A stretch of 64,000 nt of DNA. Origin: Escherichia coli (GTDB lineage Bacteria; Pseudomonadota; Gammaproteobacteria; Enterobacterales; Enterobacteriaceae). Shown piece by piece: positions 51,881-63,411 of the stretch. Made by a program: the position numbers and the translations under genes. The stretch's first letter is position 1; every line of letters begins with the position of its first letter. The DNA is taken from the NCBI RefSeq assembly GCF_030384885.1, contig NZ_CP128613.1. One strand, written 5' to 3'. A model generated the notes under the pieces. The model was not told the DNA's origin and did not search any database. It was given only the letters and a program-made list of their open reading frames with translations.

Positions 51881-52453
51881 ATGCGTGGATTACGTCCGGC
51901 ATTATCAACATTTCTCTTTTTGTTACTGATTACTGGCGGTGTTTACCCGCTGCTGACCACCGCGCTGGGGCAATGGTGGTTTCCCTGGCAGGCCAATGGT
52001 TCGTTGATTCGCGAAGGTGATACGGTGCGCGGCTCGGCATTAATCGGGCAGAATTTTACCGGCAACGGCTATTTTCATGGTCGCCCGTCGGCAACGGCAG
52101 AAATGCCCTATAATCCACAGGCTTCTGGCGGGAGCAATCTGGCGATCAGTAACCCTGAGCTGGATAAACTAATAGCCGCACGCGTTGCTGCATTACGGGC
52201 CGCTAACCCGGATGCCAGCGCGAACGTTCCGGTTGAACTGGTGACGGCGTCGGCAAGCGGGCTGGACAATAACATCACCCCGCAAGCGGCGGCCTGGCAG
52301 ATCCCACGCGTGGCGAAAGCGCGTAATCTCAGCGTTGAACAGCTCACGCAGCTGATCGCAAAATATAGCCAACAACCGCTGGTGAAATATATCGGCCAGC
52401 CGGTCGTCAACATTGTCGAACTCAATCTGGCGCTGGATAAGCTTGATGAATAA
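51881..52453 (+). CDS. kdpC: K+-transporting ATPase subunit C
   Basis: [42 protein letters not shown]...; start at the ATG preceded by GAGG. Confidence 0.95.
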
Positions 52454-55130
52454 CGAACCCTTACGTCCCGACCCCGATCGTCTGCTGGAACAAACTGCCG
52501 CGCCGCATCGGGGGAAGCTGAAAGTATTTTTCGGTGCCTGTGCAGGCGTCGGGAAGACCTGGGCGATGCTGGCAGAAGCCCAGCGACTGCGGGCGCAAGG
52601 GCTGGATATTGTGGTTGGCGTGGTTGAAACTCACGGACGGAAAGATACCGCCGCAATGCTGGAAGGGCTGGCTGTTCTGCCGCTAAAACGCCAGGCGTAC
52701 CGTGGGCGGCACATCAGCGAGTTTGATCTCGATGCCGCCCTCGCCCGCCGTCCGGCGCTGATCTTAATGGACGAACTGGCGCACAGTAATGCGCCAGGCT
52801 CTCGTCATCCTAAACGCTGGCAGGACATTGAAGAGCTGCTGGAAGCGGGCATTGATGTTTTCACTACCGTCAACGTTCAGCATCTGGAAAGCCTGAACGA
52901 TGTGGTCAGCGGCGTCACCGGAATTCAGGTGCGGGAAACCGTGCCCGATCCCTTTTTTGATGCTGCCGACGACGTAGTGCTGGTGGACTTGCCCCCAGAC
53001 GATCTGCGTCAACGGCTGAAAGAAGGCAAAGTCTATATTGCCGGGCAGGCGGAGCGCGCCATTGAACATTTTTTCCGCAAAGGCAATCTGATCGCCCTGC
53101 GCGAACTGGCACTGCGCCGTACTGCCGATCGCGTAGATGAGCAAATGCGCGCCTGGCGGGGGCATCCTGGCGAAGAGAAAGTCTGGCACACGCGCGACGC
53201 GATTCTTTTATGTATTGGGCATAACACCGGCAGCGAAAAACTGGTCCGCGCGGCGGCACGGTTGGCATCGCGCCTTGGGAGCGTCTGGCACGCGGTGTAT
53301 GTTGAAACCCCTGCCCTGCATCGCTTACCGGAGAAAAAACGTCGGGCAATTCTCAGCGCCTTACGTCTGGCGCAGGAGCTGGGCGCGGAGACAGCAACAC
53401 TTTCTGATCCGGCGGAAGAAAAAGCCGTAGTGCATTATGCCCGTGAACATAATCTCGGCAAGATTATTCTCGGTCGCCCGGCCTCGCGCCGCTGGTGGCG
53501 TCGGGAAACGTTTGCTGACCGACTGGCGCGCATCGCCCCCGATCTCGATCAGGTGCTGGTCGCGCTTGATGAACCACCCGCCCGCCCGCTTAATAACGCG
53601 CCGGATAGCCGCTCTTTTAAAGACAAGTGGCGGGTACAGATTCAGGGGTGCGTGGTTGCCGCCGCGTTATGTGCCGTTATCACCTTAATTGCCATGCAGT
53701 GGCTGATGGCGTTTGATGCCGCCAACCTGGTGATGCTGTATCTGCTTGGCGTGGTGGTGGTGGCGCTATTTTATGGACGCTGGCCTTCGGTGCTTGCTAC
53801 CGTCATTAATGTGGTGAGTTTCGATCTCTTTTTTATCGCCCCACGCGGCACGCTCGCCGTCTCTGATGTGCAATATCTGCTGACCTTCGCGGTGATGTTA
53901 ACCGTCGGGCTGGTGATCGGGAACCTTACTGCTGGCGTGCGTTATCAGGCGCGGGTAGCCCGTTACCGCGAACAACGCACACGGCACTTATATGAAATGT
54001 CGAAAGCTCTGGCTGTGGGCCGCAGTCCGCAGGACATCGCCGCCACCAGCGAACAATTTATTGCTTCTACGTTTCATGCCCGCAGCCAGGTATTGTTACC
54101 CGATGACAACGGTAAATTGCAGCCGTTAACACATCCGCAAGGAATGACGCCGTGGGACGATGCCATCGCGCAGTGGAGTTTTGATAAAGGCCTGCCTGCG
54201 GGCGCGGGCACCGATACGTTACCCGGTGTGCCATACCAGATTTTGCCGTTAAAAAGCGGTGAGAAAACCTACGGGCTGGTGGTGGTGGAACCGGGGAATC
54301 TGCGCCAGTTGATGATCCCGGAACAGCAACGCCTGCTGGAGACGTTCACGCTGTTAGTTGCCAATGCCCTGGAACGCCTGGCGCTGACCGCCAGCGAAGA
54401 ACAGGCGCGGATGGCAAGCGAACGAGAACAGATCCGCAACGCCCTGCTGGCGGCGCTTTCGCATGATTTACGCACGCCGCTTACGGTGCTGTTCGGTCAG
54501 GCAGAAATCTTAACGCTCGATCTGGCAAGCGAAGGATCGCCTCACGCCCGCCAGGCCAGCGAGATTCGTCAGCATGTGCTGAACACGACCCGACTGGTGA
54601 ATAATCTACTGGATATGGCGCGAATTCAGTCCGGCGGCTTTAATTTGAAGAAAGAGTGGTTAACGCTGGAAGAAGTGGTCGGTAGCGCGCTACAAATGCT
54701 GGAACCGGGATTATCATCGCCCATCAACCTGTCTTTGCCAGAACCGCTGACCTTAATCCACGTTGATGGGCCACTCTTTGAACGGGTGCTGATTAATCTG
54801 CTGGAGAACGCGGTGAAATATGCGGGTGCGCAGGCCGAAATTGGTATCGATGCCCACGTTGAGGGCGAAAATCTACAACTGGATGTCTGGGATAACGGCC
54901 CCGGTCTTCCGCCAGGTCAGGAGCAGACGATATTCGATAAGTTTGCTCGTGGAAATAAAGAGTCGGCGGTGCCGGGCGTTGGGCTTGGGCTGGCAATTTG
55001 TCGGGCGATTGTGGATGTACACGACGGCACCATTACCGCCTTCAACCGACCGCAAGGTGGTGCCTGTTTTCGTGTTACACTTCCCCAGCAAACTGCCCCT
55101 GAACTTGAAGAATTTCATGAGGATATGTGA
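52446..55130 (+). CDS. kdpD: Sensor histidine kinase KdpD
   Basis: 894-aa protein from [42 protein letters not shown]; H-box [13 protein letters not shown]; overlaps the kdpC end. Confidence 0.97.
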
Positions 55131-55804
55131 CAAACGTTCTGATTGTTGAAGATGAACAGGCTATTCGTCGCTTTCTGCGCACGGCGCTGGAGGGCGATGG
55201 GATGCGCGTCTTTGAGGCCGAAACGCTGCAACGCGGCTTGCTGGAAGCGGCAACCCGTAAGCCCGATTTGATTATTCTCGATCTCGGCCTGCCAGACGGT
55301 GATGGGATTGAGTTTATCCGCGACCTGCGCCAGTGGAGCGCGGTGCCAGTAATTGTGCTTTCCGCCCGCAGCGAAGAGAGCGACAAAATCGCCGCGCTGG
55401 ATGCTGGAGCGGATGATTATCTGAGTAAGCCATTTGGTATTGGCGAATTACAGGCCCGTCTGCGCGTTGCTTTACGTCGCCACTCCGCCACCGCCGCTCC
55501 CGATCCGCTGGTGAAATTTTCTGATGTTACCGTCGATTTAGCCGCCCGCGTAATCCACCGCGGCGAGGAAGAGGTGCATCTCACCCCGATTGAATTCCGC
55601 CTGCTGGCGGTGCTGCTCAACAATGCCGGAAAAGTGCTCACCCAGCGCCAGCTTCTCAACCAGGTGTGGGGACCAAACGCGGTCGAACACAGCCACTATT
55701 TGCGTATATATATGGGGCATCTGCGACAAAAACTGGAGCAAGATCCCGCCCGCCCTCGCCATTTTATTACTGAAACCGGTATTGGGTATCGGTTTATGCC
55801 ATGA
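55127..55804 (+). CDS. kdpE: Response regulator KdpE (OmpR family)
   Basis: GTG start overlapping the kdpD stop; [37 protein letters not shown]... Confidence 0.97.
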   Translation: MTNVLIVEDEQAIRRFLRTALEGDGMRVFEAETLQRGLLEAATRKPDLIILDLGLPDGDGIEFIRDLRQWSAVPVIVLSARSEESDKIAALDAGADDYLSKPFGIGELQARLRVALRRHSATAAPDPLVKFSDVTVDLAARVIHRGEEEVHLTPIEFRLLAVLLNNAGKVLTQRQLLNQVWGPNAVEHSHYLRIYMGHLRQKLEQDPARPRHFITETGIGYRFMP

Positions 55805-56078
55805 ATTATTATTCAATAAATACGCTTAACTAATTATTAATTTATTATTAAACCTGCCCCGAAAATTATTATTTGGCAGGTTTAATTTCTTAATGAAAAT
55901 ATAACCTACGAAATTGCAACATTTAAACAACAAAACAGCATCTAATATGGCGCTATTCATAATTAACGATTTATTATTTGGGGTGTGATCGTTTTTTGTT
56001 GATCTTCTTCACAGTTTATAGCCTTTTCATGGATAGAATAACTCTACCTTCAACTGACACAGCAAAAGGTAAAGGTAA

Positions 56079-56183
56079 ATGGAAAATAATAACCGCTTAA
56101 TGCCTCATATAAGGCGGACAACCCATATCATGAAGTTTGCCCATCGTAATAGTTTTGACTTTCATTTCTTTAATGCCCGTTAG
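56079..56183 (+). CDS. speFL: speF leader arrest peptide SpeFL (34 aa; ornithine-sensing nascent peptide)
   Basis: Hand translation gives MENNNRLMPHIRRTTHIMKFAHRNSFDFHFFNAR; the C-terminal HIRRTTHIMKFAHRNSFDFHFFNAR matches my recollection of SpeFL; about 300 nt upstream of speF. Confidence 0.8.
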   Translation: MENNNRLMPHIRRTTHIMKFAHRNSFDFHFFNAR

Positions 56184-56493
56184 TCTTCTGACTAAAGGGC
56201 ACCCCAGCGTACAGGTCTCCCTGACTTTAAGCATTACAGGTTAATACCTGTATCCCTCGGTGCTCATATACTGCTAACCCTTTTAAACTCTAAATAATTC
56301 AAGTCGCAGCACTAGCAACTTGAAGTATGACGAGTATAGCCAGTTACCGGGCTGGTCTGGGTTATTGCATCTGCAAAAAGCAAACTACTGATTTATTTAT
56401 CAGCGGTGGAGTTTTGCTTTTTTTCCGGCGTGATCGATTTCTCCTTTGAGAAATTGAGGACCTGCTATTACCTGAAATAAAGAGATGAACAAA
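56184..56493 (+). promoter_or_regulatory. speF leader/attenuator region between speFL and speF
   Basis: Positional; about 310-nt untranslated interval between the leader ORF and speF. Confidence 0.5.
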
Positions 56494-58692
56494 ATGTCAG
56501 AATTAAAAATTGCCGTTAGTCGTTCTTGCCCGGATTGTTTTTCCACTCATCGTGCATGCGTGAATATTGACGAAAGTAATTATATTGACGTTGCCGCCAT
56601 TATTTTATCAGTCAATGATGTTGAACGTGGAAAACTCGATGAAATAGACGCTACTGGCTATGGCATTCCTGTTTTTATTGCAACGGAAAATGAAGAACGT
56701 GTACCAGCAGAATATCTGCCACGTATTACTGGTGTCTTCGAGCATTGCGAATCACGGAAAGAATTTTATGGACGTCAGTTAGAAACCGCTGCCAGCCATT
56801 ATGAAACGCAGCTGCGCCCGCCCTTCTTCCGCGCACTGGTCGATTATGTCAATCAGGGCAATAGCGCTTTTGACTGCCCGGGTCATCAGGGGGGTGAGTT
56901 TTTCCGTCGCCATCCGGCAGGCAATCAGTTCGTGGAATATTTTGGCGAAATGCTCTTCCGCTCCGACTTGTGTAATGCCGACGTAGCAATGGGCGATCTA
57001 CTGATTCATGAAGGTGCGCCATGCATTGCACAGCAACATGCGGCTAAAGTGTTTAATGCCGATAAAACGTACTTTATTTTAAACGGCACCTCCTCTTCCA
57101 ACAAAGTGGTTTTAAACGCCCTGCTAACACCGGGTGATCTGGTGCTGTTTGACCGCAATAACCATAAGTCTAACCACCACGGGGCCTTGCTACAGGCTGG
57201 TGCAACACCGGTTTATCTGGAAACAGCACGTAACCCGTATGGTTTTATCGGTGGGATTGATGCGCACTGCTTCGAAGAAAGTTATCTGCGTGAACTGATT
57301 AGAGAAGTTGCACCGCAACGGGCAAAAGAGGCGCGTCCGTTCCGCCTCGCTGTGATTCAGTTAGGCACCTACGACGGTACTATTTATAACGCCCGCCAGG
57401 TGGTGGATAAAATCGGTCATCTGTGTGACTACATCCTGTTTGACTCAGCATGGGTCGGCTATGAACAGTTTATTCCGATGATGGCGGACTGTTCGCCGCT
57501 GCTACTGGAGCTTAATGAGAACGATCCGGGTATTCTGGTTACGCAATCTGTACATAAGCAGCAGGCTGGTTTTTCTCAGACTTCACAAATTCATAAAAAA
57601 GACAGCCATATCAAAGGGCAACAGCGTTATGTACCGCACAAACGCATGAACAACGCCTTTATGATGCACGCCTCCACCAGCCCGTTCTATCCGCTGTTTG
57701 CCGCACTGGATATCAACGCCAAAATGCATGAAGGTGTCAGCGGTCGTAATATGTGGATGGATTGTGTGGTTAACGGTATTAATGCCCGCAAATTGATCCT
57801 CGATAACTGTCAGCACATTCGTCCGTTCGTTCCTGAACTGGTGGATGGTAAACCCTGGCAATCGTATGAAACAGCGCAAATTGCGGTTGATCTGCGCTTC
57901 TTTAAATTTGTACCCGGTGAGCACTGGCATTCTTTTGAAGGTTACGCAGAGAACCAATACTTTGTCGATCCGTGCAAACTGTTGCTGACAACTCCTGGCA
58001 TTGATGCACGTAACGGCGAATATGAAGCATTCGGTGTACCCGCGACGATTCTTGCTAACTTCCTGCGCGAAAATGGCGTAGTGCCGGAAAAATGCGATCT
58101 TAACTCCATCCTCTTCCTGCTGACTCCGGCAGAAGATATGGCCAAACTGCAGCAACTTGTTGCCCTGCTGGTACGCTTCGAAAAACTACTGGAAGCTGAT
58201 GCGCCTCTGGCGGAAGTATTGCCTTCCATCTACAAACAGCATGAAGAGCGCTACGCCGGTTATACCCTGCGTCAGTTGTGCCAGGAAATGCATGATTTGT
58301 ATGCCCGTCACAACGTGAAACAACTGCAAAAAGAGATGTTCCGTAAGGAGCACTTCCCACGCGTCAGCATGAATCCACAAGAAGCCAACTACGCCTATTT
58401 ACGCGGTGAAGTGGAGCTGGTTCGTCTGCCGGATGCAGAAGGCCGTATCGCAGCCGAAGGTGCGCTTCCTTATCCTCCGGGTGTGCTGTGTGTTGTTCCG
58501 GGTGAAATCTGGGGTGGTGCTGTTCTGCGTTACTTCAGCGCTCTGGAAGAAGGGATCAACCTGCTACCAGGTTTTGCACCGGAGCTGCAGGGTGTCTATA
58601 TCGAAGAACATGATGGTCGTAAGCAAGTTTGGTGCTATGTCATCAAGCCTCGTGATGCGCAAAGCACCCTGTTGAAAGGGGAAAAATTATGA
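56494..58692 (+). CDS. speF: Inducible ornithine decarboxylase
   Basis: 732-aa protein MSELKIAVSRSCPDCF... with PLP-dependent decarboxylase regions; followed by potE with a 4-nt overlap. Confidence 0.97.
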   Translation: MSELKIAVSRSCPDCFSTHRACVNIDESNYIDVAAIILSVNDVERGKLDEIDATGYGIPVFIATENEERVPAEYLPRITGVFEHCESRKEFYGRQLETAASHYETQLRPPFFRALVDYVNQGNSAFDCPGHQGGEFFRRHPAGNQFVEYFGEMLFRSDLCNADVAMGDLLIHEGAPCIAQQHAAKVFNADKTYFILNGTSSSNKVVLNALLTPGDLVLFDRNNHKSNHHGALLQAGATPVYLETARNPYGFIGGIDAHCFEESYLRELIREVAPQRAKEARPFRLAVIQLGTYDGTIYNARQVVDKIGHLCDYILFDSAWVGYEQFIPMMADCSPLLLELNENDPGILVTQSVHKQQAGFSQTSQIHKKDSHIKGQQRYVPHKRMNNAFMMHASTSPFYPLFAALDINAKMHEGVSGRNMWMDCVVNGINARKLILDNCQHIRPFVPELVDGKPWQSYETAQIAVDLRFFKFVPGEHWHSFEGYAENQYFVDPCKLLLTTPGIDARNGEYEAFGVPATILANFLRENGVVPEKCDLNSILFLLTPAEDMAKLQQLVALLVRFEKLLEADAPLAEVLPSIYKQHEERYAGYTLRQLCQEMHDLYARHNVKQLQKEMFRKEHFPRVSMNPQEANYAYLRGEVELVRLPDAEGRIAAEGALPYPPGVLCVVPGEIWGGAVLRYFSALEEGINLLPGFAPELQGVYIEEHDGRKQVWCYVIKPRDAQSTLLKGEKL

Positions 58693-60008
58693 GTCAGGCT
58701 AAATCGAACAAAATGGGCGTCGTTCAGTTAACCATACTGACGATGGTCAACATGATGGGCTCCGGCATCATCATGCTGCCGACAAAGCTTGCCGAAGTTG
58801 GGACGATCTCAATAATCTCCTGGTTGGTGACAGCCGTAGGCTCAATGGCGCTGGCATGGGCATTCGCAAAATGCGGTATGTTCAGCCGTAAATCAGGCGG
58901 TATGGGCGGTTATGCCGAGTATGCTTTCGGTAAATCCGGTAACTTTATGGCGAACTATACCTACGGCGTCTCGCTGCTGATTGCTAACGTGGCGATTGCT
59001 ATTTCGGCAGTTGGTTACGGCACCGAACTGCTCGGCGCGAGTTTGTCACCAGTGCAGATTGGTCTGGCAACCATCGGAGTGCTGTGGATTTGTACCGTGG
59101 CTAACTTTGGTGGTGCGCGCATTACCGGGCAAATCAGTAGCATTACCGTGTGGGGGGTCATTATTCCGGTGGTAGGCCTGTGCGTTATCGGCTGGTTCTG
59201 GTTTAGCCCGACACTTTACGTTGATTCCTGGAATCCGCATCATGCACCGTTCTTCAGTGCGGTAGGTTCTTCCATCGCCATGACGCTGTGGGCTTTTCTT
59301 GGTCTGGAGTCTGCGTGTGCGAATACTGATGTAGTGGAAAACCCGGAACGTAATGTGCCAATCGCGGTACTCGGCGGTACGTTAGGTGCGGCGGTGATTT
59401 ATATCGTCTCCACCAACGTGATTGCCGGGATTGTGCCCAATATGGAGCTGGCAAATTCAACGGCACCATTTGGTCTGGCCTTCGCGCAAATGTTCACACC
59501 GGAAGTGGGTAAAGTCATTATGGCGCTGATGGTGATGTCCTGCTGCGGTTCACTGCTTGGCTGGCAGTTCACCATTGCCCAGGTGTTTAAATCTTCATCT
59601 GATGAAGGCTACTTCCCTAAAATTTTCTCCCGTGTAACCAAAGTGGATGCACCGGTTCAGGGGATGTTGACCATTGTGATTATTCAGAGTGGATTGGCAC
59701 TGATGACCATTAGCCCGTCACTGAACAGCCAGTTCAACGTGCTGGTTAACCTGGCCGTGGTGACCAATATCATTCCGTATATCCTGTCGATGGCGGCATT
59801 AGTCATTATTCAGAAGGTCGCCAATGTGCCACCATCAAAAGCGAAAGTAGCAAACTTTGTTGCCTTTGTTGGTGCGATGTACAGTTTCTATGCGCTGTAC
59901 TCATCCGGGGAAGAAGCCATGCTGTACGGTTCCATCGTGACTTTCCTTGGTTGGACACTGTATGGTCTGGTATCACCACGCTTTGAACTGAAAAACAAAC
60001 ACGGTTAA
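58689..60008 (+). CDS. potE: Putrescine-ornithine antiporter
   Basis: 439-aa APC-family transporter MSQAKSNKMGVVQLTILTMVNMMGSGIIMLPTKLAEVG... Confidence 0.97.
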   Translation: MSQAKSNKMGVVQLTILTMVNMMGSGIIMLPTKLAEVGTISIISWLVTAVGSMALAWAFAKCGMFSRKSGGMGGYAEYAFGKSGNFMANYTYGVSLLIANVAIAISAVGYGTELLGASLSPVQIGLATIGVLWICTVANFGGARITGQISSITVWGVIIPVVGLCVIGWFWFSPTLYVDSWNPHHAPFFSAVGSSIAMTLWAFLGLESACANTDVVENPERNVPIAVLGGTLGAAVIYIVSTNVIAGIVPNMELANSTAPFGLAFAQMFTPEVGKVIMALMVMSCCGSLLGWQFTIAQVFKSSSDEGYFPKIFSRVTKVDAPVQGMLTIVIIQSGLALMTISPSLNSQFNVLVNLAVVTNIIPYILSMAALVIIQKVANVPPSKAKVANFVAFVGAMYSFYALYSSGEEAMLYGSIVTFLGWTLYGLVSPRFELKNKHG

Positions 60009-60017
60009 AAAAGCGAA

Positions 60018-60052
60018 ATAAAAAAGGGCGATTGAATGATCGCCCTTTCTGT
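60018..60052 (+). terminator. Rho-independent terminator downstream of potE
   Basis: Hairpin aaaaagggcgattgaatgatcgccctttctgttt. Confidence 0.75.
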
Positions 60053-60089
60053 TTGTTGACAAAGAGTTCGTTATTTATGCCGCATCCGG

Positions 60090-60227
60090 CAGGTGTAGGG
60101 TCCAAACGCGGTCGAACACAGCAACTATTTGCGTAATTATATGAGGCATTTGCGACAAAAACTGGAACAGGATCTCGTCCGCCCCGCCATTTCATTACTG
60201 AAACCGGTATTGGGTATCGGTTTATGC
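60090..60227 (+). repeat. About 138-bp degenerate direct repeat of the kdpE 3-prime coding end (kdpE-tail remnant)
   Basis: By-eye alignment of 60090-60227 with 55663-55800 shows about 89 percent identity in the same orientation (caggtgt.gggtccaaacgcggtcgaacacagc...actgaaaccggtattgggtatcggtttatgc). Confidence 0.85.
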
Positions 60228-60355
60228 TTTGAAAAAAGTGGCAATGTATGGATAAAGTCATTTTTTATTCAAATATAAGGAACTTAATATTTAAAAAATG
60301 TCCCATACAATGCCTCATCATAAATGACACCGTAGCACACAAGGAGCAAGTAGCG

Positions 60356-61006
60356 ATGCGTGAAGTGAGTCAGTTAGTAAATACGGAAGATTCAGCCTGG
60401 CCAATAATCCAGAATTGGTTAAAAGAAGCCACAAACCATGCCGAACTCTTACCGGTTAATAAAGATTTAGCCGAAACCGCACTTTATCAATTACAGGTTA
60501 CAACAAAATCACCGATGGGTGCGCTTGTCTATGGCTCCGGAGGTCTGCTGATTGATAACGGTTGGTTACGCATAGCAGGCTCTGGTCACCCCCGGTTACC
60601 ACGAGATCCAGCAAGTTGGACACAACGCCCTGAATTCGCAAGCGTGCGGGCTTTACCCATCGCCGATGATGTCGCAGGGGGAATTTTTGCTCTTAATGGT
60701 GGCGATCTTGGGGAAGATACTGGCTGCGTTTATTATTTTGCGCCAGATACGCTGAATTGGGAAAGTCTGGAGGTTGGATATTCTGAGTTTCTTCAGTGGG
60801 CATTATCCGGTGATTTAGATACCTTCTATGAAAATGTACGCTGGCCGCAATGGCAAGAAGACGTAATAAAATTATCGGCAACGGAAGCCTTCACTTTCTA
60901 CCCTTTCTTATGGGTACAAAGTGAAGAAGCAAGAACAAGAAAAGTTATTTCGCTTACTGAACTCTGGGAAATGCAGTATCAAATGAAAGAAACAATCACG
61001 CAATAA
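60356..61006 (+). CDS. DUF2625-like hypothetical protein (216 aa), apparently intact
   Basis: ORF with AAGGAG Shine-Dalgarno 9 nt upstream of the ATG at 60356 (the track ORF starts further upstream); position matches the K-12 ybfG region (recalled). Confidence 0.55.
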   Translation: MREVSQLVNTEDSAWPIIQNWLKEATNHAELLPVNKDLAETALYQLQVTTKSPMGALVYGSGGLLIDNGWLRIAGSGHPRLPRDPASWTQRPEFASVRALPIADDVAGGIFALNGGDLGEDTGCVYYFAPDTLNWESLEVGYSEFLQWALSGDLDTFYENVRWPQWQEDVIKLSATEAFTFYPFLWVQSEEARTRKVISLTELWEMQYQMKETITQ

Positions 61007-61046
61007 GACATGTTCAGGTCCGGGTTTCATTCCCGGACTCGCTATT

Positions 61047-61541
61047 TTAATGTGTGTTTATCGCTTTCAATTCTTGCTGGCAATTTTCTGACTGACAGCG
61101 TCGCAACTCAATAATCCCGACATGCATCATCGAGCCAAAAAATCCGCTTTCGCTGACATAATCCTCATTAACTATCGGTCGAGTGCCGGGCTTACCCTGG
61201 CAAATCCTCATAAAAAATGAGGTGTAGCATTGCCATTCAGGATTTAAACCGGTCTTTTCTTGTGCTGACATATCATGAAGATAAGTAAGTTCTTTTTCGT
61301 TCCCGCCTGACAACTGCCAGCGGCGGGTATTATCAGGTAAGTTATCGCCACGGCAATTTGTCTTACACCGGGAAGGCGCAATATTTACCGCAATGCTACC
61401 CGTTAATCCTCTGGTTTTATCTTTAGGGGTCAGTAACCAGTCACCAGCTAATGATGATTGTTCAGGTTGGGCGCATGCTGTCAGTAGTAGTGTGGCGGTA
61501 ATTAATGCCACTCTGACGACCAGACTCCTTTTGGTCTTCAT
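61047..61541 (-). CDS. ybfP: Lipoprotein YbfP
   Basis: MKTKRSLVVRVALITATLLLTAC lipoprotein signal with lipobox LTAC; start taken at MKTKR inside the track ORF. Confidence 0.8.
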   Translation of the reverse strand: MKTKRSLVVRVALITATLLLTACAQPEQSSLAGDWLLTPKDKTRGLTGSIAVNIAPSRCKTNCRGDNLPDNTRRWQLSGGNEKELTYLHDMSAQEKTGLNPEWQCYTSFFMRICQGKPGTRPIVNEDYVSESGFFGSMMHVGIIELRRCQSENCQQELKAINTH

Positions 61542-61592
61542 TTTGAATTCCCTTGAGCTATTCAGTTTGTTGGCAAAGTGCTCGTTGTTCAT

Positions 61593-61694
61593 GCCGGATG
61601 CGGCGTGAACGCCTTATCCGGCCTACAAAATAGGGCAAATTCAATATATTGCACCATCTTCCCAAGCCTGATAAGCGTAGCGCATCAGGCAGTC
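61593..61694. repeat. REP/BIME palindromic elements between ybfP and pgm
   Basis: Sequences gccggatgcggcgtgaacgccttatccggcc and gcctgataagcgtagcgcatcaggc. Confidence 0.8.
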
Positions 61695-61699
61695 ATAAG

Positions 61700-61738
61700 T
61701 AAAAAAGGGCGATCTTCTGACCGCCCTTTTTCTTATTA
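61700..61738 (-). terminator. Rho-independent terminator downstream of pgm
   Basis: Hairpin aaaaagggcgatcttctgaccgccctttttc immediately 3-prime of the pgm stop. Confidence 0.7.
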
Positions 61739-61745
61739 AATGTGT

Positions 61746-63386
61746 TTACGCGTTTTTCAGAACTTCGCTAACAATCTCAACCGCTTCTTTCTCGATCTGC
61801 TTGCGATGTTCTTCACCGAGGAAGCTTTCGCAGTAGATTTTGTATGCGTCTTCCGTGCCTGACGGACGCGCGGCGAACCAGCCGTTGTCAGTCATCACTT
61901 TCAGACCGCCAATAGAAGCACCGTTGCCCGGTGCCGCCGTCAGGCGCGCGGTGATCGGGTCACCTGCCAGGGTGCTGGCGCTCACCATTTCCGGAGACAG
62001 CTTAGACAGCGCCGCTTTTTGTGCGGAAGTCGCAGCTGCCTGCAAACGGTTATAGCTCGGCGCACCAAAGCGTTTTGCCAGTTCGTTGTAGTGTTCCTGC
62101 GGGTTCTTACCGGTGACCGCGGTGATTTCTGCCGCCAGCAGACACATAATGATACCGTCTTTATCGGTGGACCACGGCGTGCCGTCGAAACGCAGGAAGG
62201 AAGCCCCTGCGCTCTCTTCGCCGCCAAAGCCGAAGCTGCCGTCGAACAGACCATCAACAAACCATTTGAAGCCTACCGGGACTTCTACCAGCTTACGGCC
62301 CAAATCATTGACCACACGGTCGATCATCGCAGATGAAACCAGCGTTTTACCGACAGCAACATCTTTGCCCCACTGCGGACGATGCTGGAACAGGTAGTTG
62401 ATCGCCACCGCCAGGTAGTGGTTCGGATTCATCAAACCTGCCGGAGTGACGATACCGTGACGGTCATAATCCGGGTCGTTAGCAAACGCCAGATCGAACT
62501 TATCACGCAGTGCCAGCAGACCCGCCATCGCACACTCGGAGGAGCAGTCCATACGGATCGCGCCGTCTTTATCGAGGTGCATAAAGCGGAAGGTTTGATC
62601 GACCTGATCGTTAACGATGGTCAGGTTGAGGTTGTAATACTCGCCAATGCGCTTCCAGTATTCAATACCGGAACCGCCCAGCGGATCAACGCCCAGCGTC
62701 AGGCCCGCTTTCTGAATCGCCGCCATATCAACGATATCGGCCAGACCTTCCACAAACGGCTGCACCAGATCCTGCTCTTTCACATGACCGGATGCCATCG
62801 CTTCGTCGAGGGAGATACGCTTCACACCTTTCAGGCCATCGGCCATCAGTGCGTTGGCCCTGTCTTCCACCACTTTGGTGACGTTGGTATCAGCCGGGCC
62901 ACCATTTGGCGGATTGTACTTGATACCACCATCTTCTGGCGGGTTATGGGACGGTGTAATCACGATACCGTCTGCCAGCGGGCCACCTTTTTTATTGTGA
63001 ACCAGGATGGCATTGGAAACGGCAGGCGTCGGAGTGAAGCCATTGTTTTCCTGCACAATAACATCTACGCCGTTCGCTGCCAGCACTTCCAGTACGGAAA
63101 TGAACGCAGGCTCGGACAGGGCGTGAGTATCTTTACCCACATAGCAAGGGCCAGTGATGCCGTTTTTCGCACGTTCTTCAGCAATTGCCTGAGCGATCGC
63201 CAGAATATGCGGCTCGTTAAAGCTGCGGCGCGCTGCACTGCCACGGTGACCGGAAGTACCGAATTTCACCGCGTGCTCCGCATTCCCTGCTTCTGGTTTC
63301 AGTACATAATATTGCGCCGTCAGTTGGGCGACGTTAATCAAATCACTCTGTTGTGCAGGTTGGCCTGCACGATTGTGGATTGCCAT
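61746..63386 (-). CDS. pgm: Phosphoglucomutase
   Basis: 546-aa protein from [51 protein letters not shown]; the track ORF has a 17-codon upstream extension. Confidence 0.97.
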
Positions 63387-63411
63387 TGCTTTGTCCTTTG
63401 TCTGCAACGTT

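Follow-up and report, generated by a model that had tools for sequence, protein, structure and literature searches.

The window analysed here is a stretch of 64,000 nt of Escherichia coli DNA, in which kdpE and pgm form the borders of a slot holding the features listed in table 1. Gene calls were taken from the PGAP annotation of the identical record NZ_CP027579.1 and from the list of open reading frames. The leader peptide gene speFL was found by tblastn in every locus that bears speF, and in 80 of 80 species loci where pgm was captured this gene is convergent with kdpE.

Table 1. Features of the kdpE–pgm slot, with positions in the window.
Feature	Position	Strand	Basis
kdpE, functional response-regulator gene	55127..55804	+	225-aa ORF; PGAP
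T1, repeat copy: kdpE codons 178–225, stop and 1 nt	55661..55805	+	repeat search, local alignment
speFL, leader peptide gene	56079..56183	+	PGAP; tblastn
speF, inducible ornithine decarboxylase	56494..58692	+	PGAP, ORF list
potE, putrescine–ornithine antiporter	58689..60008	+	PGAP, ORF list
termA, bidirectional terminator hairpin after potE, AAAGGGCGATTGAATGATCGCCCTTT	60023..60048	.	two-strand terminator scan; E. albertii comparison
s1, 34-nt copy of s element	60049..60082	+	blastn-short, alignments
Collapsed REP remnant GCCGCATCCGGC, ending at joint J2 (60089/60090)	60079..60090	.	comparison with s2–REP(Y) context and kdpE
T2, repeat copy = ybfI, dead 3' kdpE fragment	60090..60233	+	PGAP pseudogene; K-12 b4636; translation, codon-position test
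ybfG (DUF2625), intact in this strain, accessory, 44.9% GC	60356..61006	+	PGAP
ybfP, orphan lipoprotein gene	61047..61541	-	PGAP, K-12 annotation
s2, second s copy, just upstream of ybfP, abutting REP(Y)	61563..61596	+	blastn-short, alignments
BIME: presumed REP(Y), L motif with IHF-like site, REP(Z)	61593..61693	.	alignments with E. whittamii, SCPM strain, haplotype B
termB, pgm-proximal terminator hairpin AAAGGGCGATCTTCTGACCGCCCTTTTT, direct-repeat partner of termA	61704..61731	.	repeat search
pgm, right-hand conserved border of the slot	61746..63386	-	PGAP

The left part of the slot holds speFL, speF and potE. The 81 nt between potE and T2 are made up of the terminator termA, of the same type as the potE/pgm terminator of E. 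albertii, the element s1 and a REP remnant. The usual place of the s element is before the REP(Y) of a BIME; in one E. coli layout, A* (see below), it adjoins termA. To the right of T2 lie ybfG, whose closest homologues outside E. coli are at most 57% identical, and ybfP, for which only 27 relatives, essentially all from E. coli, were found among 5.8 billion proteins. The BIME that follows, whose motifs are named here after the usual BIME structure, is homologous to the kdpE–pgm spacer of Escherichia species that lack speF-potE.

A second kdpE tail and its decay

According to the first-pass annotation, a kdpE tail in the same orientation stands on either side of the 4.3-kb speFL-speF-potE unit. 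This is confirmed by repeat search and local alignment, and the repeat is slightly longer than was claimed. T1 takes in 47 codons at the end of kdpE, its stop codon and one further nucleotide. It aligns with T2, which lies 4,429 nt downstream, over a length of 145 nt that contains 14 mismatches and a single gap of 1 nt (~89.7% identity). The longest identical block, 34 nt, lies at the 3' end of the repeat. The repeat is not of low complexity. Two further direct repeats are interleaved with this one: s1/s2 (34 nt, 6 mismatches) and termA/termB. Neither pair was mentioned in the first-pass annotation.

Might the likeness of T1 and T2 be due to chance, to a fragment of a paralogous OmpR-family regulator or to an assembly artefact? 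We give this almost no credence. The alignment score of 213 compares with 17.6 ± 2.4 (maximum 26) in 500 shuffles, some 80 standard deviations above them, and chance similarity is rejected on that ground. A paralogous fragment is rejected by the 90–92% DNA identity of T2 to E. coli kdpE. An artefact is rejected because the same pair is present in 1,850 of 5,426 complete, independently assembled E. coli genomes.

T2 is already catalogued as the E. coli pseudogene ybfI (K-12 b4636), and PGAP calls it a pseudogene, ‘winged helix-turn-helix..., frameshifted, missing N-terminus’. The K-12 MG1655 copy occupies the orthologous position between potE and ybfG and is 93% identical to the window copy. 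Both alleles lack a start codon and share a premature TAG at codon 3; the window allele differs by about five private substitutions and by a 1-nt deletion that shifts the frame. By codon position (1/2/3), the substitutions number 3/4/3 in the window allele and 3/3/7 in that of K-12, against 56 of 60 at position 3 among functional Escherichia kdpE tails. Since its substitutions are spread across all codon positions, ybfI is a non-functional relic of the last 47 kdpE codons, decaying neutrally, and the earlier description of the downstream copy as non-coding holds. The further suggestion that it might retain kdpE-derived signals found no support: an Rfam scan of 55000–62000 returned no family at the gathering threshold, and a promoter and terminator scan gave nothing in ybfI above chance (six promoter-like sites versus 3.6 ± 2.3 in shuffles), the potE terminator being the only clear one.

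From what was ybfI derived? Over 145 nt it is 89.7% identical to the kdpE of the same strain and 91.7% to that of K-12. Identity is 87–92% to Escherichia kdpE tails versus 79–85% to those of Citrobacter, which points to an Escherichia kdpE as its source. Its divergence from the Escherichia kdpE consensus is ~6–7%, and it was found only in E. coli. A single origin is shown by four derived substitutions that the window and K-12 alleles have in common. The database entry for b4636 says only ‘pseudogene’, and no account of its origin was found in the literature searched, where matches were unrelated (ybfI of Bacillus subtilis, catalogue numbers). As a feature, ybfI is a catalogued pseudogene without sign of function and matters little.

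Occupancy of the slot across species and E. coli genomes

If two kdpE tails bracket speFL-speF-potE, do they mark its arrival? The first-pass annotation took them as the footprint of a cassette that entered at the 3' end of kdpE as a unit, with ~140 bp of target duplicated or repaired. To the bracketing itself may be added the patchy presence or absence of speF-potE, as a block between kdpE and pgm, across the Enterobacteriaceae, and two E. coli genomes in which a single kdpE is followed directly by ybfG. We nevertheless consider the repeat very improbable as the original mark of acquisition.

In a survey of 80 species loci, which left out E. fergusonii, E. marmotae, E. ruysiae, Shigella and Salmonella, the complete kdpE-speF-potE-pgm layout was present in 24. 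All 24 have a single kdpE tail, and in none of them was a second tail, ybfG or ybfP found. Species without speF-potE had been expected to show kdpE followed by a ybfG-like region; instead, kdpE is followed by pgm. The divergence of speF-potE between E. coli, E. albertii and Citrobacter is about that of the flanking kdpD and kdpE, which fits vertical inheritance.

Within E. coli the slot has five layouts, here called haplotypes A, A*, B, B' and C. Haplotype A (3,197 genomes) is the common one; it has speF-potE in the slot, potE directly beside pgm, and a single kdpE tail. Haplotype C, the layout of the window and of K-12, accounts for 1,850 of the 5,426 genomes. Haplotype B, without speF-potE, was found in 254 genomes, B' in two (plus two IS1 deletions) and A* in two. 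In haplotypes B and B' the occupant is ybfG, ybfP or both, with the same s-REP-BIME-terminator sequence behind it, and B has a different BIME between kdpE and ybfP. In A*, which has potE, terminator, s and REP alone, termA is followed directly by s-REP-BIME-termB. The second kdpE tail occurs at ~1,860 places in E. coli, roughly the number of haplotype C genomes, and only together with the E. coli-specific ybfG-ybfP segment.

The repeat thus tracks ybfG-ybfP instead of speF-potE, and 24 species together with 3,197 E. coli genomes hold the unit in the same slot with one tail. At an integrase att site, occupancy always goes with both copies and an empty site has one; these are occupied sites with one. 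Target-site duplications of transposable elements are typically 2–14 bp long, are identical at first and directly abut the element; the present repeat is 145 nt long and is kept apart from potE by terminator, s1 and REP remnant. The annotation between the copies holds nothing but speFL, speF and potE, with no transposase; the repeat search revealed no terminal inverted repeats at the ends of the unit, and no integrase is annotated in 55000–63400. By age, too, ybfI does not fit: it is much younger than the presence of speF-potE in the slot. A part of the earlier proposal that stands is that speF-potE behaves as a unit, a presence/absence block between kdpE and pgm; the repeat as its acquisition footprint, with target duplication, is largely refuted.

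What of the two genomes in which kdpE is followed directly by ybfG? In CUWW10 a full kdpE is joined to ybfG exactly at the repeat, with 100% identity to K-12 on both sides, and its KdpD and KdpE accessions are the same as those of type-C derivatives. The crossover must lie at the 3' end of the repeat, the home of the longest identical block. Both B' genomes thus have the look of type C after a recent deletion, in which speF-potE was lost exactly between the repeat copies.

A probable fusion of two haplotypes

We think it probable that ybfI is the scar of two alternative kdpE–pgm versions joined end to end. The slot is polymorphic: one occupant is speFL-speF-potE-terminator followed by s-REP, as in A*, and the other is ybfG and/or ybfP followed by s-REP-BIME-terminator, as in B and B'. 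Haplotype C would then consist of A* through its s-REP, continued by the other haplotype starting inside kdpE, at codon 178. Both flanks are accordingly duplicated, T1/T2 around speF-potE and s1/s2 around ybfI-ybfG-ybfP. One illegitimate joint at the 3' end of the REP hairpin, with at most 1–2 nt of microhomology, and one ordinary homologous crossover in a shared flank would suffice, and either haplotype may have been the recipient. The event would have taken place once, in the E. coli lineage after its split from E. albertii. Since then ybfI has decayed neutrally and the repeats have served as substrates for deletion: recombination of T1 with T2 removes speF-potE, and that of termA with termB probably gave rise to the common layout with potE directly beside pgm.

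At the joint J2 (ATCCGGC followed by AGGTGT, at most 1–2 nt shared), codon 178 of kdpE follows directly on sequence derived from REP. Rightwards beyond ybfP, collinearity with haplotype B extends into pgm, and over the ~169 nt of BIME-termB haplotype C shows seven differences from B versus 13–14 from A*. The s-BIME region of A* is 92–93% identical to the window while its flanks are 99–100% identical; its private substitutions mark A* as an old allele. Because A* already has termA next to s, this junction would not be novel, and the junction of REP with kdpE codon 178 appears to be the single novel joint in C. We infer how recombination formed C, in which direction it ran and what part REP played, as well as the original state of the joint REP, which is now collapsed to 12 nt.

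Are the parents of this fusion to be found? The left one is, as A*, and the right side is B-like. The order kdpE-ybfG-ybfP occurs only in two genomes that are probable secondary deletions, and no clearly ancient parent of that order was present among the genomes surveyed, which counts against the fusion. Haplotype B could not be identified as the source of ybfI: identity is 89.6% to haplotype-B kdpE tails versus 90–92% to the tails of A and C, and ybfI is not measurably closer to B, which also counts against the fusion. The context of the stop codon, TGAA versus TAGGG, was discarded as a parental marker, the haplotype-B genome L096 having an intermediate TGAGGG. An E. albertii-like donor of the speF-potE-termA block of C, considered for its albertii-type terminator, was likewise rejected: speF-potE alleles are common to A and C backgrounds, at 98–99% identity. 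Relatives of YbfG with 75–86% identity (P0005, P0006) were dismissed as loci of a sister lineage. Transitions are the sole differences between their contigs and E. coli, C>T changes alone in one set, and the contigs are probably damaged or converted reads. Two diverged relatives of YbfP were of no use for dating the event, P0133 sitting in an ordinary E. coli of haplotype-B layout and P0134 in a type-C assembly full of frameshifts.

Another route would give the same sole novel joint at REP and would likewise duplicate both the T and the s flanks. In a kdpE-ybfG-ybfP-s-REP chromosome, a tandem duplication from codon 178 to REP, joining REP to codon 178, could have been followed by replacement of the first ybfG-ybfP by speF-potE-termA through homologous recombination with A*, in kdpE on the left and in s-REP on the right. 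Shyamala and colleagues reportedly found in 1990 that REP sequences lie at the join points of tandem duplications in Salmonella, which favours this route. We hold it unlikely: it adds a second step to what a single one can explain, it presupposes the ancient kdpE-ybfG-ybfP parent that was not observed for the fusion either, and the haplotype count of the 5,426 genomes, which was no dedicated search, gave no hint of a doubled ybfG-ybfP.

Could C instead be the ancestral state of E. coli? It would have arisen by two independent illegitimate events (termA to s1, REP to the kdpE tail), and A, A* and B' would be deletion derivatives through the three repeat pairs. Haplotype A does carry a termB-type terminator with C-like flanks, as a deletion between termA and termB predicts; A* has the structure predicted for a deletion between s1 and s2, and the B' genomes are accounted for as deletions between T1 and T2. 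The s copies (s1, s2 and that of A*) differ in a star-like manner, with 5, about 0 and 4 private changes, so that s1 and the A* copy are only putative orthologues. This counts against the fusion, for A* could have arisen from C long ago by s1×s2 recombination, and the second illegitimate joint, termA to s1, would then be needed. We judge C as the ancestral state distinctly unlikely. It requires one more illegitimate event, the 7–8% divergence of the s-BIME of A* inside nearly identical flanks speaks against a recent derivative, and B, with its different BIME between kdpE and ybfP, is not derivable from C by deletion.

The fusion of haplotypes does leave some room for the idea of insertion. In one directional version, speF-potE DNA entered a kdpE-ybfG-ybfP chromosome and its far end was joined inside kdpE. 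Because that would be a secondary re-insertion with duplication of the tail, the insertion reading may be called partly supported.

What does the comparison teach? It corrects an easily drawn conclusion, namely that the repeat on both sides of a module is the scar of its insertion. In E. coli the kdpE–pgm interval proves to be a structural hotspot rich in REP, where no fewer than five layouts coexist, and ~250 complete E. coli genomes are without any inducible ornithine decarboxylase/antiporter. If the fusion is correct, the locus is a clean natural example of one illegitimate joint that duplicated both flanks of two alternative alleles, the resulting repeats having since mediated precise deletions. 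It might further be speculated that the three interleaved pairs (kdpE tail/ybfI, s1/s2, termA/termB) form a recombinational switchboard by which E. coli lineages can repeatedly and precisely shed the acid/ornithine-inducible speF-potE module or ybfG-ybfP, the five haplotypes being kept by niche selection on ornithine decarboxylase/antiporter function and not by drift; we rate this as decidedly improbable. The comparative picture is of modest value.

Likeness to known systems

Integrase islands, whose attL and attR lie at the 3' ends of tRNA, tmRNA or protein genes, resemble the slot in that a same-orientation duplicate of a gene's 3' end brackets accessory DNA while the gene itself stays whole through its upstream copy, as with kdpE here. 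In contrast to such islands, the slot has no integrase or excisionase, its 145-nt repeat is ~10% diverged, most genomes have speF-potE without that repeat, and a further pair of repeats encloses the adjoining block instead.

Homology-facilitated illegitimate recombination has been described for Acinetobacter, Pseudomonas stutzeri and Streptococcus pneumoniae. The anatomy proposed for the slot would match it, with extended homology at one end and 0–2 nt of microhomology at the other, the outcome being added DNA, foreign or allelic, and a partly duplicated anchor. Here, however, the partners would be alternative haplotypes of the same locus and not foreign DNA, the process being deduced from its products.

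REP sequences occur at the join points of tandem duplications, and gyrase and IHF bind BIMEs. The REP at the present joint is collapsed to 12 nt, which sets the slot apart from REP- and BIME-associated chromosomal rearrangements. In common with them, the sole novel joint is found where a REP remnant has its 3' end, and the slot is rich in REP and BIME copies that differ between haplotypes.

The kdpE-tail repeat and the pseudogene ybfI

Is the end of kdpE truly repeated beyond potE? The final 47 kdpE codons and the stop (T1) recur in direct orientation, starting 81 nt past the potE stop (T2). The copies align over 145 nt at 89.7% identity, differing by 14 mismatches and a single 1-nt gap, and their local alignment score is 213, against 17.6 ± 2.4 in shuffles. 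The repeat is real and statistically overwhelming. The first-pass annotation had located it correctly; the true ends lie a few bases past those it gave.

The downstream copy is already known. For annotation we used E. coli strain 2013C-4282, whose chromosome (NZ_CP027579.1) contains the window at 100% identity. There PGAP labels the copy a pseudogene, ‘winged helix-turn-helix domain-containing protein; frameshifted; incomplete; missing N-terminus’. The orthologous stretch of K-12 MG1655, between potE and ybfG, is the named pseudogene ybfI (b4636), on whose origin a full-text literature search found no publication.

Features of the kdpE-pgm slot in the window (termA and termB, terminator hairpins; s1 and s2, copies of a 34-nt sequence s)
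Feature	Position	Remark
kdpE tail (T1)	55661-55805	
ORF labelled ‘TonB-dependent receptor’	55969-56100	132 nt, overlaps speFL start
termA	60023-60048	after potE
s1	60049-60082	after termA
REP remnant		12 nt, between s1 and ybfI
ybfI (T2)	60090-60233	
ybfP	61047-61541	
s2	61563-61596	between ybfP and REP(Y)
termB	61704-61731	next to pgm

The start codon of ybfI is absent, its third codon is TAG in place of Trp in the window and K-12 alleles alike, and the window allele additionally carries a 1-nt deletion. Relative to an Escherichia kdpE consensus, functional kdpE tails carry 56 of their 60 substitutions at the third codon position; in ybfI the spread over positions 1/2/3 is 3/4/3 (window) and 3/3/7 (K-12). 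Within ybfI scans found no Rfam family, and promoter and terminator searches turned up nothing convincing. The two alleles are 93% identical and have four derived changes in common, with about five private to each, so the fragment has a single origin and has decayed from then on. ybfI is a dead relic, drifting neutrally. At 87–92% identity to Escherichia kdpE tails and 79–85% to those of Citrobacter, it is a fragment of an Escherichia kdpE, neither a paralogue nor an import from another genus. Its lineage-specific change is about 6–7%, roughly half of it common to both alleles. Together with its affinity to E. coli kdpE and its absence from E. albertii, E. whittamii and the other sampled genera, this roughly dates the event to within the E. 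coli lineage, well after the slot had been taken by speF-potE.

Occupants of the slot across species and within E. coli

If the repeat had been left by the acquisition of the ornithine decarboxylase/antiporter module, as first proposed, should it not accompany speF-potE elsewhere? We surveyed one genome per species, 80 kdpE loci being listed with 10-kb flanks; E. fergusonii, E. marmotae, E. ruysiae, Shigella and Salmonella lay outside this set. In the base layout of the Enterobacterales kdpD-kdpE and pgm are convergent, with a gap of at most 1.5 kb in 42 of the 80 listed loci. The arrangement kdpE-speFL-speF-potE-pgm is complete in 24 and partly captured in 5 more, and slots bearing speF-potE include those of Citrobacter, Enterobacter, Kluyvera, Lelliottia, Cedecea, Atlantibacter and E. 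albertii. None of the 80 listed loci has a second kdpE tail (tblastn, and blastn with 7-nt words), the 24 complete ones included, and none has ybfG or ybfP. The proposed footprint does not mark the module in the other species listed. Against the prediction, no ybfG-like region follows kdpE where speF-potE is absent: in the surveyed species that lack speF-potE, pgm comes next. Two of these are Escherichia, E. whittamii and the species of strain SCPM-O-B-8794, in which kdpE and pgm are 186 bp apart. In Pseudocitrobacter faecalis (locus L022, 3251-5476) speF adjoins kdpE, potE is absent and pgm lies 72 nt past speF; gain or loss of the unit is not always complete.

In E. coli at least five layouts were distinguished by queries that span the junctions, run against 5,426 complete genomes.

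Layouts of the kdpE-pgm slot in E. coli
Layout	Structure	Genomes
A	kdpE-speFL-speF-potE directly convergent with pgm	3,197, including O157:H7 and LF82
C	window and K-12: potE, then ybfI-ybfG-ybfP	1,850
B	full kdpE, REPs, ybfP, pgm; no speF-potE, ybfG or ybfI	254
B'	full kdpE, then directly ybfG-ybfP	2, plus 2 IS1-mediated deletions
A*	potE-termA-s-REP-BIME-termB-pgm; no ybfI, ybfG or ybfP	2

A second kdpE tail is placed in about 1,860 genomes, essentially the count of layout C. Its presence therefore follows ybfG-ybfP and not speF-potE, to whose insertion it had been tied. The polymorphism itself is tidy, unsurprising E. coli population genomics. The whole of speFL-speF-potE is missing from the haplotype B genomes (loci L083 and L084 are examples), and speF is among the most often pseudogenised metabolic genes in a 2026 pangenome paper (PMC13322260).

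Ancestry of the resident genes

Between E. coli and E. albertii, speF and potE are 87–89% identical, kdpD about 90%, kdpE 89–91% and pgm 92–94%. To C. sedlakii the figures are 75–84% for speF/potE and 77–79% for kdpD/kdpE. Alleles of speF-potE are common to different haplotypes: potE is 99.4% identical between K-12 (C) and O157 (A), and speF 98.5% between the window (C) and LF82 (A). By these identities speF-potE appears native to Escherichia.

YbfG, by contrast, has no relative above 57% identity outside E. coli, and the orphan YbfP has 27 among 5.8 billion proteins. The GC content of ybfG and ybfP is 45%, and that of kdpE and pgm 55–56%. Diverged homologues of YbfG and YbfP, followed as leads, came down to damaged-read contigs or ordinary E. 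coli. Three Logan contigs (SRR9087304, SRR27475578 and SRR27475714; L091-L093) carry ybfI'-ybfG-ybfP at 86–88% identity; they differ from E. coli exclusively by transitions, in two of them C>T only, and have the look of assemblies of chemically converted or damaged reads, from which proteins were then predicted; this inflates the apparent diversity of the protein family. In an otherwise ordinary E. coli of haplotype B, whose kdpD and pgm match K-12 at 98%, ybfP (L096, 9001-9474) is only 87% identical in nucleotides and 66% in protein. The gene evolves very fast, which suggests relaxed constraint or a decaying orphan.

Two further observations concern the left side of the slot. Over kdpD and the 5' part of kdpE (52413-55660) the window reaches only about 95–96% identity with any other E. 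coli in the comparison; among themselves the others are 97–100% (kdpD) and 95–100% (kdpE) identical, and the window's speF-potE is 98–100% identical to LF82 and R32_14_1F. The kdp regulatory genes of this strain show mosaicism and an unusually deep divergence of alleles. Secondly, 55805-57000 (the kdpE-speF intergenic region, speFL and the first ~500 nt of speF) exists in two very different E. coli alleles. In speFL and its leader the window, O157:H7 and LF82 agree at 98% and stand at about 87% identity to E. albertii. From these three K-12 departs, with only 73–83% identity, and within 56079-56493 it is 81% identical to Citrobacter sedlakii. The K-12-type leader and speF 5' end look like DNA from outside Escherichia that replaced the resident sequence between breakpoints near the stop of kdpE and some 500–600 nt into speF. 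Since 3,245 of 5,424 genomes fall in the 90–95% identity band relative to the window, the K-12-type allele is possibly the more common of the two. The ‘TonB-dependent receptor’ that PGAP calls in this AT-rich leader (L001, 4470-4601) is labelled ‘hypothetical protein’ in other strains and is almost certainly spurious.

Joints, deletions and the origin of haplotype C

Haplotype C reads kdpE (T1)-speFL-speF-potE-termA-s1-REP remnant-ybfI (T2)-ybfG-ybfP-s2-REP(Y)-L-REP(Z)-termB-pgm. Its two repeat pairs are interleaved, T1/T2 enclosing speF-potE and s1/s2 enclosing ybfI-ybfG-ybfP. Rightward of ybfP, C and B are collinear, and the BIME of C has 7 differences from B and 13–14 from A*. The sole adjacency of C without a counterpart elsewhere is that between the REP remnant and kdpE codon 178 (ATCCGGC/AGGTGT, 60089/60090), where microhomology amounts to at most 1–2 nt.

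The repeats also serve for deletion. In CUWW10 an intact kdpE is joined exactly at the repeat to the DNA downstream of ybfI, with 100% identity to K-12 on either side and KdpD and KdpE proteins the same as in type-C derivatives. It appears to be a recent, precise deletion of speF-potE. The crossover must have lain in the 3'-terminal part of the repeat, where T1 and T2 share their longest identical block (34 nt for the window strain). GF4-3 has the same structure with a different kdpE allele. In MB10 (L089) and KL53 (L090) independent IS1 insertions have deleted speF-potE-ybfI, MB10 keeping a truncated speFL beside IS1; this is another route of loss in K-12-like backgrounds. The terminator after potE is of termA type (loop TGAATGA) in C and in E. 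albertii. Haplotype A has instead a termB-type, pgm-proximal hairpin (loop CTTGCGA or CTTCCGA), flanked left and right by C-like sequence. This suggests that A, the majority layout, arose by termA×termB deletion of A* or C.

What, then, is A*? Here s-REP(Y)-BIME-termB directly follows termA, and carries private substitutions: it is 92–93% identical to the window, against 99–100% in the flanks around it. This argues that A* is an old allele and the termA/s adjacency native. Since the three s copies differ in star-like fashion, A* could also be an old offshoot of C; that derivation would need a second illegitimate joint.

The best explanation of C is that two occupants otherwise found as alternatives in the slot were fused in tandem. 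The left part would be an A* allele through its s-REP flank, and the right part a kdpE-(ybfG)-ybfP allele entered at kdpE codon 178. One illegitimate joint at the REP and one homologous crossover in the shared flank would suffice, in either direction: A* DNA into a ybfG-ybfP chromosome, or the reverse. A clearly ancient kdpE-ybfG-ybfP parent was not found among the genomes examined. The former direction would amount to a secondary insertion of speF-potE at the end of kdpE with duplication. To that extent the insertion reading of the first-pass annotation survives; as an account of the original acquisition it does not. We conclude that ybfI is probably the scar of a recombination that joined two alternative haplotypes of this REP-rich hotspot. 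The anatomy of the joint would match homology-facilitated illegitimate recombination.
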